Source: an uncultured bacterium
Lineage (GTDB): Bacteria > Chloroflexota > UBA5177 > JANWHV01
Reading direction: 5' to 3'
NCBI GenBank assembly: GCA_963729625.1
Contig: CAVSOU010000008.1
Location: 192,001 to 256,000 of the forward strand
DNA length: 64,000 bases
Program-made: the position numbers and the translations under genes
Shown here: positions 56,692 through 64,000 of the stretch, piece by piece
Layout: every line of letters begins with the position of its first letter
How positions within the stretch are numbered: the first letter of the stretch is position 1
The notes under the pieces: model-generated
Database searches by the model: none
The model's input: only the letters and a program-made list of their open reading frames with translations
What the model was told of the DNA's origin: nothing

Positions 56692-59600
56692 TCACCGCCA
56701 GGTCACCGCTACCGTGTTTGATCGTGGCCCGCCTCCCGTGATGCTGGAGCCCGACGTGCTCAGCCATGCCGTGTACTGGTGCGTCACAGCGGTGTTGGAA
56801 GAGGCAGTTGTCGTGCAGCTCGAGCCAGTGCCGCAGGCCGCAAGAACCGATCCACTTTCGTTCACGATGTCGATATACCAGACAGTGAGCCCGACGTCGA
56901 CGTTTGTCGAGGCGGTCAGCGTCACGCTCGAGTTCACGGACGGCGACCCGTTGCTGGCCGTGAGACCGCTGAGGCATGTGCCGTCTGACGCGCAGCTACT
57001 GCCTGACATGGGCGTGCTGGTAGCCGTGGCGCCGGTTCCCGTCCAGCTCACCGTCACGGTTGCCGTATGCGGCCCGCCTCCGGCGATGCCGCTGCCCGAC
57101 GTGCTCAGCCATGCCGTGTACTGGTGGCTGGCCGCGACGCTGGATGTGACGCCGGCAGCACAGCTCGTGCCGGTGGGGCAGCTGCTCACGATGGCGCCGG
57201 ATTCGTTCACGATGTCGATGTACCACACGGTGGGACCGACGTCCTGATTGGTGGTGGCCGTGAGGGTGACCGCCGTGTTCAGCGGCGCCGAGGTCGCGCT
57301 GGCGCTCAGGCCGGTGAGGCAGGTTCCGTCAGTCGCGCAGGTCGTACCGGACGCGGGTGTGGCCGTGCTGGTCGCGCTGGGCGCGACCGGCGTGTTCGTC
57401 CGCGTGGCGGTCGCGGGAACCGGCGTGTTCGTGCGCGTCGCGGAAGGCGGCGGCGTGCCAGTGCTCGGCACGGCTGTATTCGTACGCGTGGCCGTGGGCA
57501 GCACGGGCGTGGTCGTGCGTGTCACGGTCGGCGGCGCGGGCGTAGGCGTGCGCGTGGCCGATGGCGGTACAGGCGTGCTGGTAGCCGTGGCGCCGGTTCC
57601 CGTCCAGCTCACCGTCACGGTTGCCGTATGCGACCCACCCCCGGCGATGCCGGTGCCCGACGTGCTCAGCCATGCCGTGTACTGGTGGCTGGCCGCGACG
57701 CCGGATGTGACGGCCGCGCCGCAGCTTGCCCCAGTGGGGCAGCTGCTCACGATGGCGCCGGATTCGTTCACGATGTCGATGTACCACACGGTGGGACCGA
57801 CGTCCTTATTGGTGGCGGCCGTGAGGGTGACCGCCGTGTTCAGCGGCGCCGAGGTCGAGCTGGCGCTCAGCCCGGTGAGGCAGGTTCCGTCACTTGCGCA
57901 GCCGGTGCCGGACGCGGGTGTGGCCGTGCTGGTCGCGCTGGGCACCACCGGCGTATTCGTCCGGGTGGCGGTCGCAGGAACCGGCGTGCTCGTGCGCGTC
58001 GCGGTTGGCGGCGGCGTGCCGGTTGGCGTAGCAGGCACAGGCGTGCGTGTGGCCGTTGGCGGCGTCGTGTTGGTTGGGTAGCAGGCACAGGCGTGCGCGT
58101 CACGGTGGGCGGCACGGGCGTAGCAGTCGCCGTGTTGCCGACGCACCCGCCGACGGCGCCGACGATATCGCACAGGTAGTGCGATACGTCGATACTGCCC
58201 CATCCCGTCGCCCGGTCCCAACCGGGACCGGCACTGTAGGAAACGGATCCGTAGGTTGTTCCCGACGTCACATCGTGGAAGTCGGCCGCATACTTTGCTG
58301 CGTTCTCGGCCAGCGCGTAGATCTTTGGGTTAGCCCAGCCGATGCGCGCAAGACCGTTTACCTGTGCGTAGCGATCGGCTACCGCCGCCATACCCGCCCA
58401 TAGGGGGGCTGCCAGGCTGGTACCGCCGACAACCACGTTGGCACCGTTGACATACACGTCGGCGCCGGTGTTCGGGTTTGCGTCCGCGGAGACGTCCGGC
58501 TCCGCTCGTCCGCTGCAGCTCGTGGATACGCTGTTCTGGTAACTCGGCTTGGCGAACACTGACGAGCACCCCGCTCCACCGCCGCCGTTGCCAGAGACAT
58601 TCCAGGTGGTCTCGCCGGAATAGGTGGTCGAGCCGCTCGTGGAAAGCGTGGTTCCACCGACCGAGACGACGTTCGGACTGTCCGCGGGATAGCTCGGTTG
58701 CCCGGTGCCACCGGAATCGGTGCCCGCGTCGCCTGAGGAAAAGTAGAACGTCGTCCCTTCCGCTGCTGCCTGCAAGAAGTCGCTTTCGAGGGCCGTGCCG
58801 AAGGCGTCGAGCGGAGAAATCTCCTCGCCGCCGCCCCAGCTATTGCTCACCACATGAATGGCGGAGTTGTTCACGGCCATGGAGATGGCGTTCTCCAGGC
58901 CAACTTCACTGCCGCCGCACCCGGAGGAGTCGCAGATCTCGTTGCCTAGGTAGTACACGAGGTGGGCATGTGGGGCCATCCCATGCGCGTACTCCACGTC
59001 CATCGCCGTCTCAATCCATGCATCCGTGTGGGTATCGGCGCCGTTGGAATAGACCCACTCGATCTGGTCTGCCCCGCTGTTGGTCGGCGTCGTCACCACC
59101 TGTCCGGACATCGCCGTATCGCCGGTCGCAGTGGCGAAGCCGCTCAAGTCGCTGTTCTGCAGGGCATTGCCCCACAGGGTAAAGCCAATAACCTGGTTCG
59201 TGCCGTCATAGCTGCTGCCGGAGTCGTAGATACTGCGGAAGTTCGCCGGCGTGTAGCCGTTTGCCGGTCTGGACGCCGCATGGCTCATCGCGTGGAAGCG
59301 CACGATGCTGTTGAGACCGGTCACGGCCAGGATGCCGAGGTTTGCCGGCACGACCGGATCTGCCGACGCGGCGAAGTACGTGCCGTGCGCCGGCGAGCGG
59401 TACGAATTGACCTGGACCGCGAGAGCGCGTTCTACCGCGGCCGTCGTTCCCTGTAGCGTGATGGTTGTTCCATCGGCGCTGACGTATGTGCTCGACAGTC
59501 CATTCTGCACAGCCCAGGCCTGTACGGCGCCTACTTGGTCGGTTGTCGGCGCGAACTGCGCGTCGAACTGATCGTGTGTAAGATAGATTCCCTGGTCGGC

Positions 59601-59870
59601 CTGGTTCGCGATAAACGACGCCAACACGGCCTGGTTCCGATACGGGAGCAACACGTCGATGGTCATCGGCGCCGCGACATCGGCGGCGCCTATAAGCTGG
59701 GCGACGCCGGACCTCACTTCCGTCGGCGTCTCGCCGACCAGGATGACGCTGCCAGTCGACGGCGCCGCGCGCGACACGCCGCGTGCGGGCAGTCCGGCCT
59801 CTCCCGTCAGCAAGCCAAGCAGCAGTGTTCCTGCCAGGCTGCCGGATAATAGCGTGGTGCGAAGACTCAC
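56692..59870 (-). CDS. Secreted S53 (sedolisin/kumamolisin) peptidase with Pro/Thr linkers and three Cys-containing Ig-like domains; frameshifted near 58077
   Basis: GTG 59870 after AGAGGG; prodomain FAPT..V..W; ETAMDVE, SNSWG, SSGDAG, SVGGT, PDVSADA, GGTSLAAP, FHDVTSG, GWDRATGWGS; C-terminus continues in a second frame (ORF 56692..58221). Confidence 0.85.
57011..58000 (-). repeat. Internal direct repeats (offset 561 bp) encoding duplicated domain and linker
   Basis: ggcgtgctggtagccgtggcgccggttcccgtccagctc at 57011 and 57572; a more diverged third copy lies at about 56695-56995. Confidence 0.9.
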
Positions 59871-60201
59871 TTGTACGTCCCTCTTTCTGCGTTCCGAACA
59901 CCGTGAGGGAAGTGACCGGCTCGCTGCTTGTGCGGCGCGCTTCGACGTTCTGTCCCCGTTTGTGACGCGAAACTTCACCCTTACGCACAGTGTGTGCATC
60001 GAGGTGCGGAACATGCAAAGTCGTCCGTCCTCGCTGTGGTGTGCCCGGTCGAGCTTTGACAGATCGGGCTACACTCGGTTCGTCCTCTTGAACATGTAGA
60101 TGCTCACTCCGCGAGGAGTCCAGGCCGATCGGACTCCGTGAGGGTGCGGAAACGAGGGATCTGCTGAGCAGTATAGCGCACTGTAGCAATATGTCTATAG
60201 C

Positions 60202-61485
60202 TCACCACGGTTTATTTGCCTGCGAGCGCGGCGGGATGATGGTGCTGCAGGGCGGCGGCGGCGCGAGTGCAGCCGCATGAGAGCAGAGGGCCAGGCTCAT
60301 CAGGAAGTCATCGTGCCCTTCGCTCGCCGGTACAAAGAAGCGCATCTGCTCGTTGACGCCCAGGTCATACCGCGCCGACTCGATTTCGCGCCGCGCCTGC
60401 CGCCAGGCTTCGCTTCCGTCCTGCCTGTAGAGACGGCAGCGGCCGGTACCAGCCAAGGCCAGCAGCGCGAACCCCAGTCGCGATTTCGACGGCGCGGTGA
60501 AGACAAACTGCTCCACCACCGCGCCCCCGAGGACGCCTTCGAGCCAGGAGGCGACGCCTGCGCCCAGGCCTGTGGCATCCACCACGACCTTTGTGCAGGG
60601 AAAGACGTCGGCCAGCAGGTGGCGAAGCGCATGGTGTTGGGTTGGATGGTCCGCCCCCGACCACTGGTAGTGTTGCACGACCTCCAGCGAAGGCTCGAGC
60701 TCCTCCGTCCAGTGCAGCCGTGCTATCGTGGTCACGGTGCTGTCGCGGCCACGGTCCGCCGCTGCCGGTGCCAGGAGTCCTGGAATTGCCTGAGCGTCCT
60801 GGCCGGCTACGTCTATCCCCGCCACGTAGGTTTCGCCTGCGATGCCCTCGGCCAGTCGCGCGTGTCTGCCTGAGAGCAGCAATGAACGCGTCGCGAGCGA
60901 AAACAGGCGTCCCATCTCCTCGAGCGGCTGCAGGCAGTATTGCGTCTGCACGATCGGATGGTCTGAGCCGAGCCTGGCTATCTCGGCTTCCACGAACATG
61001 CGATAGGCCGGCGAGATTTGTGCCAGCACCTGCCAGTCGTACTCGAAGTGGCGACGTATGCCGTCGCGGTGCTCAAGGGCTAGGTTCACCTGCTTCTGGC
61101 GCTCGAGTGGGTTCGTTGCGTCCCACGCGGTGCCATAGAGCACGATTGGCGCGTTAGTCGAGCTGGCCATGGGGCGGAATTCGCGCTGCACCTTGTCTTC
61201 CTGCAGGTCCTGCGCCTCGTCAAGCTCCAGAAGCACGTCGGCAGTTCCGCCAACGACATGGCTGGCGGGAGCGCCCGAGAGAAAGCGTACGCGGGCGCGG
61301 CCCAGCTCGATCGCATCCTGGCTGGTGCGCACGCAGCCGCGGTTCAGTGGATTGTCAAGCACGCTCAAGAGGCGCTGTCTGCTGATCAGTGCCTGCGGGC
61401 GGAGCGTCGGGGCCGCTTTGACCAGCGTGCCGCCGGTAAACCGGTAGATATTGAGCAGGTACGCTTCGAGCTCCGCTGAAAGCTC
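60202..61485 (-). pseudogene. Terminase large subunit-like gene, 3' portion, truncated at Walker A
   Basis: Frame reads ELSAELEAYLL..LVKAAPTLRPQ..LLELDEAQD (Walker B)..VLYGTAW..AGIDVAG..VVDATGLG..HDDFLMS (RNase H-like nuclease); in-frame TAA at about 61507-61509 and no start codon or GK motif before ELSA. Confidence 0.75.
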
Positions 61486-61661
61486 AATATAGCTGCGTTG
61501 TGTTGTTTATGATATAGCGCAGGACTGCCCCACGGGGGGTACGACTTCGCAACGAGCGCTGTTCAGTACTGCTCACGAGCAGGGACCATCGCCCACATGC
61601 AATTCTCGTGCGCCCTGGCGCATCCTAGAGGCTATTGCACAGCGCAATTGTTCACACTATC

Positions 61662-61750
61662 GGGCCGTCCTCGCGCGCGGGGAGAGCGAGTCATCCAGGA
61701 TATGGGAAGCACGGCGACGACTGGGCCGTCCTCGCGCGCGGGGAGAGCGA
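61662..61750 (-). CRISPR. Type I-E-like mini-array without cas genes: two identical 28-bp repeats and a 33-bp spacer, with degenerate flanking repeats spanning 61521-61790
   Basis: gggccgtcctcgcgcgcggggagagcga at 61662-61689 and 61723-61750 (period 61); its reverse complement TCGCTCTCCCCGCGCGCGAGGACGGCCC resembles I-E repeats such as GTGTTCCCCGCGCCAGCGGGGATAAACCG. Confidence 0.65.
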
Positions 61751-61805
61751 AGCGCCGGATCTGCTGGGAATCCGGGGCTTGATCGGGCGACGCGCTTATG
61801 GCCGG

Positions 61806-62015
61806 CTAGTCGGGCTCTACCTCGCCGTCGATCACGTAGCTGCGATGGGTGCGGCGGATGTGGTAGACACTGCGAATGACCGCCAGGTCCTTGTCTATCT
61901 GCCGGCTGCTCATGCCGTAGTGCTCCGCCAGCGTCGCGCGGGTCCAGACGCCCGGCTCACGCAGGATGCGATGGGCGATCTGAACGCGGCGCTTGAAGGC
62001 GGACTTGACGCTCAT
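61806..62015 (-). CDS. Small HTH protein (HTH_11-like)
   Basis: RRVQIAHRILREPGVWTRATLAEHYGMSSRQIDKDLAVIR; start overlaps the upstream stop. Confidence 0.8.
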   Translation of the reverse strand: MSVKSAFKRRVQIAHRILREPGVWTRATLAEHYGMSSRQIDKDLAVIRSVYHIRRTHRSYVIDGEVEPD

Positions 62016-62254
62016 CAGCGCAGCTCAACCAGATAGTCATCAACTGCACCGTACTGTCGGTCGGCATTGACGGCGCGGAATGCGCGGTAGTTGTAGGGTC
62101 CCCAGCCCATGACTTCGGTCACGGCGATCTCGCCAACCTGATAGCGGTGGTCGAGATACTCGAGGTCTTGTCCCGTGACCTTGCTCTGCGGTGCGATTCG
62201 GTCGGTTGTCGCGTTGTAGTCGATGTACGCTGCTGCCCTGATATGCTCGTCCAT
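62015..62254 (-). CDS. Hypothetical protein (79 aa)
   Basis: RBS GAAGGAG; tightly coupled in the operon; acidic and aromatic composition. Confidence 0.7.
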   Translation of the reverse strand: MDEHIRAAAYIDYNATTDRIAPQSKVTGQDLEYLDHRYQVGEIAVTEVMGWGPYNYRAFRAVNADRQYGAVDDYLVELR

Positions 62255-62302
62255 CGTTCTTCCTTCTGCCCGGTTTCGCCGCCGGGCCCGGCACTGCCTT
62301 GG

Positions 62303-62914
62303 TCAGGCTCGCTGGACGCTCCCATTCCGGGACTGAGCATTGAACACCTTCACCAGCTCGGCGATCTCCGCGGCCGCCTCTTCCTGGGTGACGTTTGGCA
62401 CGATGGAGACAGGGCGGCCGAGGGCAGCCTGCAACTTGCCGATCTTGCTCAGTTGCTCCTGGGTGGCCACCCCTGACGGTACAACACTCGGCTTCGGCGC
62501 CGTGTGCGCGGTAGCCGGCGAAGCGCCTATGGCGGGATACGTGGGCATGTCGTCGTCGCCCAGCTCCTCGAGCGCGGCGCCGCCCACGTTCAGGGCGTCG
62601 CGCAGCGCGCGGGCCTTGGCGCGCGTCTCGGCCATGCGGATGTAGTGGGCGGCGACCATCTTGCCGGTGTTCTGCACATTGGCGTCGCCGATGCCGGTGT
62701 AGGTGCCGGCCTCGGTCGTCACTTCGGCCCAGACAATGGCCGTCCAGGCGTTGACCTCGGTCGGCGCCTGCTCGAGCTGCGTCCGGATGGCCTTCAGGCC
62801 CGAGCGGTGCGCCAGGTCGAGCAGGCCGGCATAGAGCACGAACTCTTTGCCGGCACGCTCGATGACGTAGCGGTGGTCGATCTTCTTGATCGTGCTGATG
62901 GCGTCGCCGTTCAT
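62303..62914 (-). CDS. Rad52/22-like single-strand annealing protein candidate
   Basis: GKEFVLYAGLLDLAH..AIVWAEV..TYTGIGDA..IRMAETRAKARALRDALNVG..EEL; C-terminal ATQEQLSKI. Confidence 0.65.
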   Translation of the reverse strand: MNGDAISTIKKIDHRYVIERAGKEFVLYAGLLDLAHRSGLKAIRTQLEQAPTEVNAWTAIVWAEVTTEAGTYTGIGDANVQNTGKMVAAHYIRMAETRAKARALRDALNVGGAALEELGDDDMPTYPAIGASPATAHTAPKPSVVPSGVATQEQLSKIGKLQAALGRPVSIVPNVTQEEAAAEIAELVKVFNAQSRNGSVQRA

Positions 62915-62916
62915 GG

Positions 62917-63141
62917 CTACCACCGTCCCTTTGCCGCCAGAGCGTGATACTCGTAGGTGTGGCCATCGTAGGAGTAGTCTAGATCGTGCCGGCGCGCCTC
63001 CGCGAACTGGGCCAGTGTCTCGCGTGCCAAGCAGTCCGGGCAGTGCATGCGTTCCTGCCAGGTGTCGCCGTCCGTGTACGGGTAGCGCTTCTGGCAACGC
63101 AAACACGTTGCCGTGGGATGCCAGGCTTCCTGTGCTACCAT
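62917..63141 (-). CDS. Small zinc-finger protein
   Basis: CLRC...CPDC; RBS GAAAGGA; first gene of the leftward operon. Confidence 0.7.
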   Translation of the reverse strand: MVAQEAWHPTATCLRCQKRYPYTDGDTWQERMHCPDCLARETLAQFAEARRHDLDYSYDGHTYEYHALAAKGRW

Positions 63142-63242
63142 AGTGTCTGAGTCCTTTCGACTCGGTGAGCGGCTCCCTAACTTTTCCAGGGTGGGGGAGC
63201 CGTTCGGCGTTTCAGGAGAGCTCATGCGCTCTGCCTGCTACC

Positions 63243-63318
63243 ATTATCTCATAGTGCGCGCGCACTTACAATAGTGTAAACGCACTATCTTGAAAGTGCG
63301 CGCGCGGTGTGCTATCGT
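63243..63318. promoter_or_regulatory. Divergent promoters with three related operators
   Basis: Leftward TTGTAA-N17-GATAAT; rightward TTGAAA(63290)-N17-TATCGT; operators AGTGcgcgcgCACT (63253), AGTGtaaacgCACT (63273) and AGTGcgcgcgCGGT (63295). Confidence 0.75.
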
Positions 63319-63337
63319 AGTCTCAGGAGGAGTTGCG

Positions 63338-63553
63338 ATGATGGCCGCAGCAAAGCGCGAGATGCCGCGTGGCGGGAAGCGCGCCAGGAAGGGTACCGGC
63401 CGCGCGCGCTCGAGCGGGCTAAACTTGCTCTTGAGCCCCGACCACAAGGCGTGTTTGACCGCTCTCGCCGAGGCGGAAGGCATCACCCGCACCGCCCTCA
63501 TCGAGCGCTGGATCGACGAGCACAGCTCCCAGCCCACGCAGGCGCCCCAGTAG
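63338..63553 (+). CDS. RHH/CopG family regulator
   Basis: LNLLLSPDHKACLTALAEAEGITRTALIERWI; RBS AGGAGG. Confidence 0.8.
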   Translation: MMAAAKREMPRGGKRARKGTGRARSSGLNLLLSPDHKACLTALAEAEGITRTALIERWIDEHSSQPTQAPQ

Positions 63554-63759
63554 GCGAATTTCGCGCTAGGGCCTCGAAAGCGGCCTCAGCGTGCCCTAGG
63601 ACCAACGTCACCGGTTCCTATGGTACACCAGGCGTCTGAGTAGCCCGCCTGCGAGGCATTCCTGGTTGCCCGCATTTGCTATTCGCCCTCGTACGGATCT
63701 TCGGCCTCCACGGATGAAGCCGCGCCTGCCACGACTTGGTGTGCGTGCTACGCGATAGG

Positions 63760-64000
63760 TCAGGGCAGAGGCATCTTGGTTTGACCGAGTACCTGAGGCG
63801 CCTCGATCCGAATCCCCGGTATCTGAACCTTACTCAGATCATCGTCCCAGGTTAGCAGAACATCGCAGCGAGCCCGCAAAGCGCAGGCTATATGCAAGGC
63901 ATCGAAAGGCCTTACACCGTAGTTTCGGCATAACCTGTTGGCGTCGATGCCTATCTGCATGTCCACCACAATCCATTGGAACAGCCGTCGCTGAAAGAAG
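63760..64000 (-). CDS. PIN domain protein (partial, starts beyond the window)
   Basis: GVRPFDALHIACAL..DVLLTWDDDL. Confidence 0.85.
   Translation of the reverse strand, partial: FFQRRLFQWIVVDMQIGIDANRLCRNYGVRPFDALHIACALRARCDVLLTWDDDLSKVQIPGIRIEAPQVLGQTKMPLP

Follow-up and report, generated by a model that had tools for sequence, protein, structure and literature searches.

Phage satellites such as PLE, the phage-inducible chromosomal islands (PICIs) and the P4-like elements integrate at chromosomal sites, not inside their helper. Temperate phages of the phiC31 type are complete phages that usually land in host genes. The skin, SPbeta and gin elements of spore formers lie within sporulation genes of the host, from which they are excised in the terminal mother cell by developmental control of a recombination directionality factor. 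Here we describe a locus in an uncultured Chloroflexota bacterium in which the large terminase gene (terL) of a resident phage-like cluster is split by a 15.2-kb element that carries a predicted large serine recombinase (LSR). The locus came to light in a stretch of 64,000 nt (the window), which is C8:192001-256000 of the source genome (G000), a draft assembly of 21 contigs that is 87% complete. An original prediction, made from the window alone, had proposed an element integrated in the packaging gene. Much of the evidence sits just beyond the window end, in the intervals L003 (C8:250001-270000; window position = L003 + 58000) and L004 (C8:270001-290000).

The closest described systems are the helper-embedded PICIs (HE-PICIs). 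Tommasini, Mageeney & Williams (2023, PMC10111431) report 491 additional satellites of this kind, which occupy 14 sites in late genes of lambdoid helpers; one of these sites, A:Terminase_1:245, is in the large terminase. Their attP brings no replacement sequence, hence the late gene is silent until excision, and they belong to one tyrosine-integrase clade with AlpA, found in Gammaproteobacteria with lambdoid helpers (PMC10111431). Like them, the element described here is a small integrative element with integrase and replication genes inside a late gene of a resident prophage-like cluster, and it is co-oriented with the interrupted gene. Unlike them, it has a large serine recombinase, a 2-bp core and a Chloroflexota-type host; it targets the Walker-A helix of a different terL lineage, and it brings its own two-ORF (open reading frame) terminase. 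The “helper” here is also without recognisable early genes, and the corresponding element of a sister species is anti-oriented. Since its integrase is a serine recombinase and not one of the tyrosine clade with alpA, the element is not a member of the HE-PICIs, although it may work like one.

Other likenesses are more partial. With the gene-intervening elements skin (sigK/SpoIVCA), SPbeta (spsM/SprA+SprB) and gin (gerE) (PMC5499854, PMC5595907) it shares a split coding sequence, an LSR gene at the end of the intervening element, and a short-core recombination that would restore the exact frame; here, however, the interrupted gene is a phage gene. Among satellites with a serine recombinase or their own packaging genes, PLE of Vibrio cholerae (PMC6002521) is an example, and the element falls within the general pattern of PLE, PICIs and P4-like satellites (10-20 kb, with integrase, regulators, primase-helicase and packaging genes, without a full virion module). 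Unlike those, it lies inside its presumed helper, on which it may depend. From temperate phages with large serine integrases, such as phiC31, Bxb1, A118 and TP901-1 (PMC3783163), it differs in its capsid-less cargo and in having another phage-like element as target, whereas the resolvase-recombinase-zinc ribbon architecture, the att sites without long direct repeats, the orientation-setting 2-bp crossover and the position of the integrase beside attP are alike.

The interrupted gene is a predicted large terminase

On the minus strand of the window, positions 60202..61485 hold 427 codons and a stop that correspond to residues 63-489 of full-length large terminases. This 3’ part of terL has a Walker B motif (LLELDEAQ) and an RNaseH-like nuclease domain, and lacks the P-loop. 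The minus-strand translation of window positions 60202-61560 reads ..CAIS*TTQRSYIELSAELEAYLLN.., continuing for 427 sense codons until the stop at 60202. The in-frame TAA lies at 61507-61509, upstream of the first Glu codon (61485-61483), in a region with 44% G+C (61486-61530) versus 64% for the contig. The first ATG, GTG or TTG is an internal TTG at 61368, and since no start codon precedes it, the ORF caller reports a product of just 388 aa.

We searched for relatives among 8,000 scored candidates, of which 1,498 matched at E<=0.001, and examined the 120 best. The best full-length relatives have 485-493 aa, and several are labelled by their sources as Chloroflexota or Chloroflexi proteins from metagenome-assembled genomes. 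Twelve aligned relatives share the pattern MARQ[MTA]GKN(E/Q)(L/T/M)SA (e.g., ..VMMARQMGKN-ELSA..), and the window frame enters the alignment at ELSA. GKN[EQ] was found inside the first 140 residues of 114 of the 120. Of the other six, three are fragments and one is a variant, while the remaining two have the same truncation as the window frame (P0001 begins MSNSELSA; P0002 begins at the same internal Met as the 388-aa ORF). P0002 (388 aa, from an ENA contig of 3.9 kb) is probably a third instance of the split. The original prediction had described this abruptly starting frame with its Walker B and nuclease motifs, the AT-rich stretch and the upstream stop, and had placed the break at N|E within RQxGKNELSA; it was right on all of these, and the 114 relatives with an early GKN[EQ] answer its own reservation that homologues might naturally start at the break.

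Searches of the window fragment against Pfam and PDB sequences returned no match, and PHROGs gave weak terminase matches only; we therefore modelled a full-length relative (P0003; 65-sequence alignment; predicted local distance difference test, pLDDT, 91). A PDB sequence-profile search with the TerL alignment also gave 0 matches. The best structural matches of the model were all large terminases: HK97 (6z6d, E 3.8e-18), followed by T4 gp17, Sf6 gp2 and D6E (range for the four, 4e-18 to 3e-12). At the domain level, it matched the P74-26 ATPase and the G20c nuclease (TMt 0.66-0.78). The Terminase_6C domain is detectable in 22 of the 65 relatives. In the model, GKN (residues 60-62) forms the P-loop between a strand (50-55) and a helix starting at residue 61, so that the break lies in the first turn of the Walker-A helix. 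By this model, the interrupted gene is that of a TerL with two domains, an ASCE ATPase and an RNaseH-like nuclease. Its family is found next to portal and capsid genes in the source genome and in two other genomes (G060 and G044), and it also occurs on viral contigs.

Junctions and recombinase of the inserted element

A tblastn search with 11 full-length relatives against the whole source genome located residues ~1-64 at C8:268887-268687 on the minus strand (E 1e-11 to 1e-19), and no other terL copy. The missing residues 1-62, ending in ..TVMMARQMGKN, are encoded at C8:268693-268878 (minus strand), 15.2 kb upstream of the 3’ part and outside the window. The 5’ ORF (L003 18878-18675) has an AGGAGG-GTG start and 62 residues up to GKN, after which it runs into ELFTC and a stop. 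The 62 and 427 codons add up to 489, the length of the relatives P0003, P0004 and P0009.

Between the two parts lies an element of 15,205 bp, measured between the GA copies (L003 3486-18690, to C8:268690; minus strand), with 2.5 kb of it in the window (61486..64000). At the junction within the window (J2), GA occupies 61484..61485 (minus strand), as bases one and two of the Glu codon that follows GKN. The corresponding copy at the far junction (J1) is at L003 18691-18692 (minus strand), outside the window. In register, J1 reads AAC[GA]ACTATT and J2 TATATT[GA]GCTTTC; the longer reads are ..AAGAAC[GA]ACTATTTACC.. and ..GCTATATT[GA]GCTTTCAGCG.., respectively. GA is the only in-register dinucleotide common to both junctions in the source genome and in its sister species (G001) alike. 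The element-side arm at J2 (half of attP; 61486..61521, minus strand) is relatively AT-rich, and holds one copy of a 17-nt inverted repeat (61500-61516) whose other copy is near the opposite end (L003 18659-18675); the copies are 14 and 15 nt from GA. The junction comparison revealed no long direct repeat at the element ends. Serine-integrase att sites of the phiC31/Bxb1 type have a short core and no long direct repeat, and the 2-bp core with inverted arms seen here carries the same signature. A crossover at CT, in the Leu codon, is possible in the source genome alone; it was discarded, being not common to the sister-species junctions and having less symmetric arms.

Joining the left side of J1 (..GGTAAGAAC-GA) to the right side of J2 gives AAC GAG CTT TCA, that is N-E-L-S, in frame over 489 codons. 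Since the joint sits within the Glu codon after GKN, recombination at GA would restore the frame exactly, a reconstitution of the skin/SPbeta type as far as can be read from the DNA.

Fifty bases past the terL 5’ ORF starts an ORF of 483 aa adjoining J1 (L003 17172-18623, with a frameshifted tail to about 16919; minus strand). It matches Resolvase (4e-27), Recombinase (5e-18), Zn_ribbon_recom (3e-6) and the integrase family phrog_95 (9e-76), and carries a YIRVST catalytic motif; it is a predicted LSR with catalytic, recombinase and zinc-ribbon domains. A sigma-70-like promoter site lies inside the element arm upstream of it (TTTACC-18-TGxTATAAT, 10 of 12 matches, with a TG-extended -10), and the element of the sister species has a TATAAT at nearly equal distance from the core. 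That the insertion was made by this type of recombinase at GA appears close to certain. The missing part ending in GKN, the recombinase and the att core that the original prediction had expected beyond the 64 kb were therefore all located, with the qualification that the junctions share just a 2-bp core with inverted element arms. The misassembly at 61486 that it had raised as a danger did not materialise: the 5’ part is on the same contig, and the same split is present in the independent assembly of the sister species.

A second element at the same dinucleotide in a sister species

The sister species belongs to the same genus and was independently assembled. Its terL is split in the same way: the 5’ part ends in GKNEI and a stop, the 3’ part starts ..SNSELSA, and an insert of 16,716 bp sits at the same GA. 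Its LSR is intact (581 aa, 58% identical to that of the source genome), and is found at the opposite end of the element, inverted. LSR-coding similarity begins at nt 122 from the core in one element and at nt 123 in the other; the six bases beside the core are ACTATT on the LSR side and TATATT on the far side in both. In the direction of the LSR, the core reads GA in the source genome and TC in the sister species. Since the central dinucleotide sets polarity for serine integrases, we infer that a flipped core explains the opposite orientation of the second element; the ungapped arm identities (23/36 flipped vs 21/36 unflipped) are by themselves no proof of it.

Apart from the LSR, the two elements have no similarity at the protein level, and the only other DNA that they have in common is a 49-nt stretch at the 5’ end of a 102-aa Cys-rich ORF. 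Two further congeners (G003 and G004) have a terL intact across the site and no homologue of this LSR. These are uninterrupted orthologues of the kind the original prediction had suggested aligning. Together with the unrelated cargo at the site in the sister species, they led us to reject the idea of a single phage, with the element as the early region of the prophage that it interrupts. The presence of two different elements at one dinucleotide in sister species requires repeated targeting or turnover by excision.

The phage-like cluster and both its flanks are syntenic in the two species, and the cluster proteins are roughly 45-89% identical (tblastx segments). Amino acid identity is 76-77% for terL, 80% for an S53 peptidase, 80% for an M20 peptidase and 65% for a serpin, located ~6 kb past terL in the sister species and ~12.5 kb in the source genome. 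Between the two species, the 3’ part of terL has a nonsynonymous divergence (dN) of 0.141, a synonymous divergence (dS) of 1.02 and a ratio of 0.14 (Nei-Gojobori estimates here and below), and the flanking S53 peptidase a dN of 0.133 and a dS of 1.03; the two LSRs have a dN of 0.386 and a dS of 1.74. The terL ratio of 0.14 is no higher than those between either of these species and G003 or G004, whose terL is intact (0.126-0.147); the low-divergence pair G003-G004 gave 0.095. These figures indicate that terL is under purifying selection and has diverged much as the adjacent host gene did, and that the elements were not co-inherited with it. In neither species does either half of terL contain a stop or a frameshift. 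By a rough calculation, neutral drift over more than a few percent of this divergence should have put stops into a terL that lay broken and useless. Either both insertions are recent and independent, with an LSR lineage that repeatedly targets the site, or terL is still used as the elements can leave.

The genome of the sister species also contains a second LSR copy interrupted by stops (C9:431045-432530) and a second terL fragment with a stop (residues ~307-483; C10:1042161-1042690), which are traces of earlier elements. Its protease-capsid gene is split as well, by ~47.6 kb (C9:1043351-1045427 and 1092993-1093214); no tyrosine or serine recombinase model matched within this insert (C9:1045428-1092992), and an ORF near one of its ends looks transposase-like by eye only.

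The resident phage-like cluster

The interrupted terL is the end gene of a ~25-kb portal-capsid-tail cluster, in agreement with the original prediction of a packaging ATPase gene in a resident phage-like locus. Upstream of the 5’ part, on the same strand, we found in order a portal (phrog_10963, 2e-42), a C1-type peptidase, an 808-aa protease-capsid fusion (Phage_capsid_4, 1e-42), two tail proteins with GDSL domains, a tail-fibre-like protein, an adaptor/head-closure-like protein, and ORFs of 719 and 190 aa; closest to terL are a Y-family polymerase, a small Flp-like membrane protein and a terminator-like hairpin. On the far side of the portal, the genes are of host type (an ion transporter and regulators with STAND HTH-AAA-TPR architecture).

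The terL lineage itself is truly a viral one. At least 194 TerL relatives are on viral contigs in IMG/VR. All 80 of the viral loci kept match from residue 28 or earlier, and terL is therefore uninterrupted at residue 62/63 in them, a count biased by the use of an intact Walker A as one of the two search patterns. Of the 61 related genomes searched, 28 have the family; if the unpublished G018 and G055 are set aside, the figure is 26 of 59. In three of seven distant genomes examined it keeps its company: terL is beside portal and capsid homologues in G060 and G044, and has a capsid homologue ~10 kb off in G005.

Several genes in and around the cluster deserve mention. The Y-family (ImpB/MucB) polymerase (600 aa; L004 106-1908, C8:270106-271908) stands between the tail genes and terL, and is likely a later insertion or a moron, since it has no counterpart in the syntenic cluster of the sister species. 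Directly upstream of terL is a 78-aa membrane protein resembling Flp/Fap pilins below the Pfam cut-off (L003 19069-19305, C8:269069-269305), which is 85% conserved in the sister species and is followed by the terminator-like hairpin; in such a place it may be a holin or a comparable protein, and not a pilin. On the other side, directly downstream of terL, are a 715-aa S53/sedolisin-type peptidase (pro-kumamolisin activation domain and subtilase) and then a Thr/Pro-rich ORF that has three long internal repeats and matches no Pfam family (window 57867-60014 and 56692-58221, minus strand). Just past the portal, two regulators of ~1,050 aa with HTH-AAA_16-TPR architecture (STAND/MalT-like) are encoded in opposite orientations (L020 6179-9376 and 10657-13767), with a homologue of Hcp (T6SS_HCP) nearby (L020 17242-17778).

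Cargo of the element

All but one of the likely genes of the element are on the terL strand. After the LSR come ORFs of 336 and 133 aa, an HTH_17 (excisionase-like) ORF (L003 15508-15732), a 709-aa primase-polymerase/AAA_25 helicase (L003 12971-15100), small ORFs, a methyltransferase-like ORF (L003 10288-10923), a radical-SAM protein (L003 9264-10373) and a 182-aa ORF. These are followed by a terminase in two adjoining ORFs, a 260-aa ATPase (L003 7943-8725; phrog_7579, 2e-58) and a 229-aa nuclease (L003 7243-7932; phrog_27743, 5e-44), all on the minus strand. The two are in different frames, 10 nt apart, and since each matches its own PHROG family end to end, this terminase looks naturally split, not frameshifted.

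The remaining genes reach into the window. The gene of a 170-aa PIN-domain toxin (L003 5760-6272, minus strand) is cut by the window end, its 3’ part being at 63760..64000. Divergent from it is an 87-aa ribbon-helix-helix-like ORF (63290..63553, plus strand) with a weak RepB-RCR_reg match, a candidate antitoxin or regulator beside the PIN gene. Then follow, on the minus strand, the 102-aa Cys-rich ORF (62917..63225; weak RNHCP zinc-ribbon match), a 267-aa ORF of the phage family phrog_22961 (62303..63106), a 79-aa ORF without family match (62015..62254) and, as the last gene, a 69-aa helix-turn-helix (HTH) protein (61806..62015) with weak matches to HTH_11, PafC-HTH and the HTH of WYL regulators. 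A scan of 26 element ORFs gave no match to capsid, portal or tail families. For 15 element proteins, PADLOC returned just one weak HTH match and no defence system, and no second copy of the element was found in the source genome.

Between the last gene and the att arm are two exact 28-nt direct repeats (61662-61689 and 61723-61750, plus strand) with a 33-nt spacer, giving the 61-nt period typical of type I-E CRISPR units; the weak match of the adjacent 69-aa protein is to WYL-type CRISPR-associated regulators. We did not classify the repeats as CRISPR, finding no cas genes and no further copies. Models of Cas1, Cas7e and Cas6e had no match in the source genome (87% complete), and a crude array finder detected no other array in it. 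The repeat occurs in 2 copies there and in none of the other 300 genomes of the phylum at <=3 mismatches. The spacer has no match in the source genome at <=7 mismatches, and no exact match in viral contigs. The repeats have no Rfam match, and their hairpin is no more stable than shuffled sequences (z -0.1). They may represent a stranded mini-array or paired protein-binding sites, or be of some other nature.

Possible behaviour of the element and alternative explanations

Taking all of this together, we lean towards an LSR-borne element inserted in terL that is satellite-like overall. In the integrated state the cluster would make no TerL, and hence would package no DNA. Aided by a directionality factor, the LSR would release the element in circular form, and terL would be whole again. 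The freed element, with its own primase-helicase and two-piece terminase, might then replicate and be packaged in the capsids of the resident cluster, as a helper-embedded, satellite-like parasite. The element of the source genome may have been recently immobilised, given the 3’ frameshift of its LSR. For the satellite-like, excision-dependent lifestyle taken by itself, our confidence is tentative and falls a little short of even.

A number of observations weigh against such a parasite. No integrase, repressor or replication gene of the structural cluster was recognised around it, and given this lack of early genes and the host-type genes past the portal, the cluster may not be inducible. The LSR of the source genome is frameshifted after codon 473 relative to that of the sister species, its annotated product ending at 483 aa, which argues against a switch working today in this strain. 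Its last ~97 residues have to be read in the +1 frame, where they belong to a distinct ORF of 127 aa (L003 16919-17293, C8:266919-267293), and are 58% identical to the sister species; the site is not a homopolymer. Since this tail is as conserved as the rest (58%), the frameshift may be a real recent lesion or an assembly error. No directionality factor was identified in the element, the HTH_17 ORF being a weak candidate. The element shares no DNA with the resident cluster, such as a possible cos or pac site. The LSR clade was found in just 2 of 401 genomes of the phylum searched at E<=1e-40; a wider search gave 2 distant matches in genome contigs (26-28% identity, Chitinophaga) and 3 in metagenome contigs (22-26%). 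Nearly all genes of the sister-species element are anti-oriented to terL, and this element looks decayed, with tape-measure pieces and a 273-aa helicase fragment, besides a virion protein. Finally, no excised, circular or empty-site form was seen. The sequencing data examined were three runs from one study, with DNA of the source genome only in one of them (X1, share 0.11) and no RNA run listed that contains it. The three runs gave 16, 63 and 58 contig pieces; those of X1 are 180-260 nt long at a depth of 2-4, and none bridges L003 3485 or 18691, so that they carry no weight either way on excision. The joints listed (all with sides of 20-21 nt at 85% likeness) include none at the junctions.

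The alternative that best withstands the data, though we consider it rather unlikely, is a dead-end insertion: a decaying prophage remnant in the terL of an already defective prophage, with no excision and no gain, and with halves that are intact since the event was recent. The frameshifted LSR and the X1 reads without evidence of excision would fit it, as would the tail and helicase fragments that make up the sister-species element, the ~47.6-kb insertion that also broke the capsid gene there, and a cluster without recognised early genes. It accounts less well for stop-free terL halves in two species with a dN/dS of 0.14 at a dS of about 1, or for two different elements at the same dinucleotide; the conservation of the LSR tail, moreover, makes that lesion recent or an error.

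Less probable still is a host developmental switch by regulated gene integrity, where programmed excision in a subpopulation would turn on the packaging of a domesticated cluster resembling a gene transfer agent (GTA). An LSR at the element end with exact frame restoration does match the skin/SPbeta pattern, and a structural-only cluster is present at a syntenic locus in two species with host-like divergence. However, two congeners lack the element and all 80 kept viral contigs are uninterrupted, so that the interruption is not a fixed feature, and the two elements have unrelated cargo and opposite orientations.

We give a similarly low probability to a combination of these ideas, in which the portal-to-terminase cluster would be a domesticated, vertically inherited GTA-like particle system, the LSR elements in its Walker-A codons excision-gated locks, and the flipped GA core what admits different elements in either orientation. 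Particle production and the ride of the element would then be possible only in cells where the element leaves. What was found of a structural-only, vertical cluster is that no early genes were recognised, and that one species pair has it at a syntenic locus with host-like divergence.

We consider it very improbable that the split is an artefact of assembly, or that the terminase has its natural start at ELSA or is naturally composed of two polypeptides. The genome is a draft, but the same architecture has clean junctions in an independent assembly. In 114 of 120 relatives, Walker A is part of a single chain; the 5’ fragment soon meets a stop, and the 3’ part has no start before the internal TTG.

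Implications

A literature search joining helper-embedded elements or HE-PICIs with serine integrases returned only the HE-PICI report, the available part of which has zero mentions of “serine integrase” (PMC10111431). A second search, on prophages, terminases and gene transfer agents of Chloroflexota, had nothing relevant among the 15 titles listed. Elements living inside a late gene of another phage were described only in 2022-23, and the present locus suggests that this embedded way of life also has an independent origin, based on a serine recombinase, in a remote phylum that has received little study. Here the insertion strikes the catalytic P-loop of the packaging motor, and two unrelated cargoes use one 2-bp target in opposite orientations. 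For a new LSR lineage, the locus provides a natural attB/attP pair along with a variant whose core is apparently flipped. It also points to a phage particle cluster in Chloroflexota that evolves like host genes and may be a GTA candidate. Removal of the element at the mapped two-base joint would rebuild the terminase gene, which would make this a rare case of a “parasite inside a phage”.

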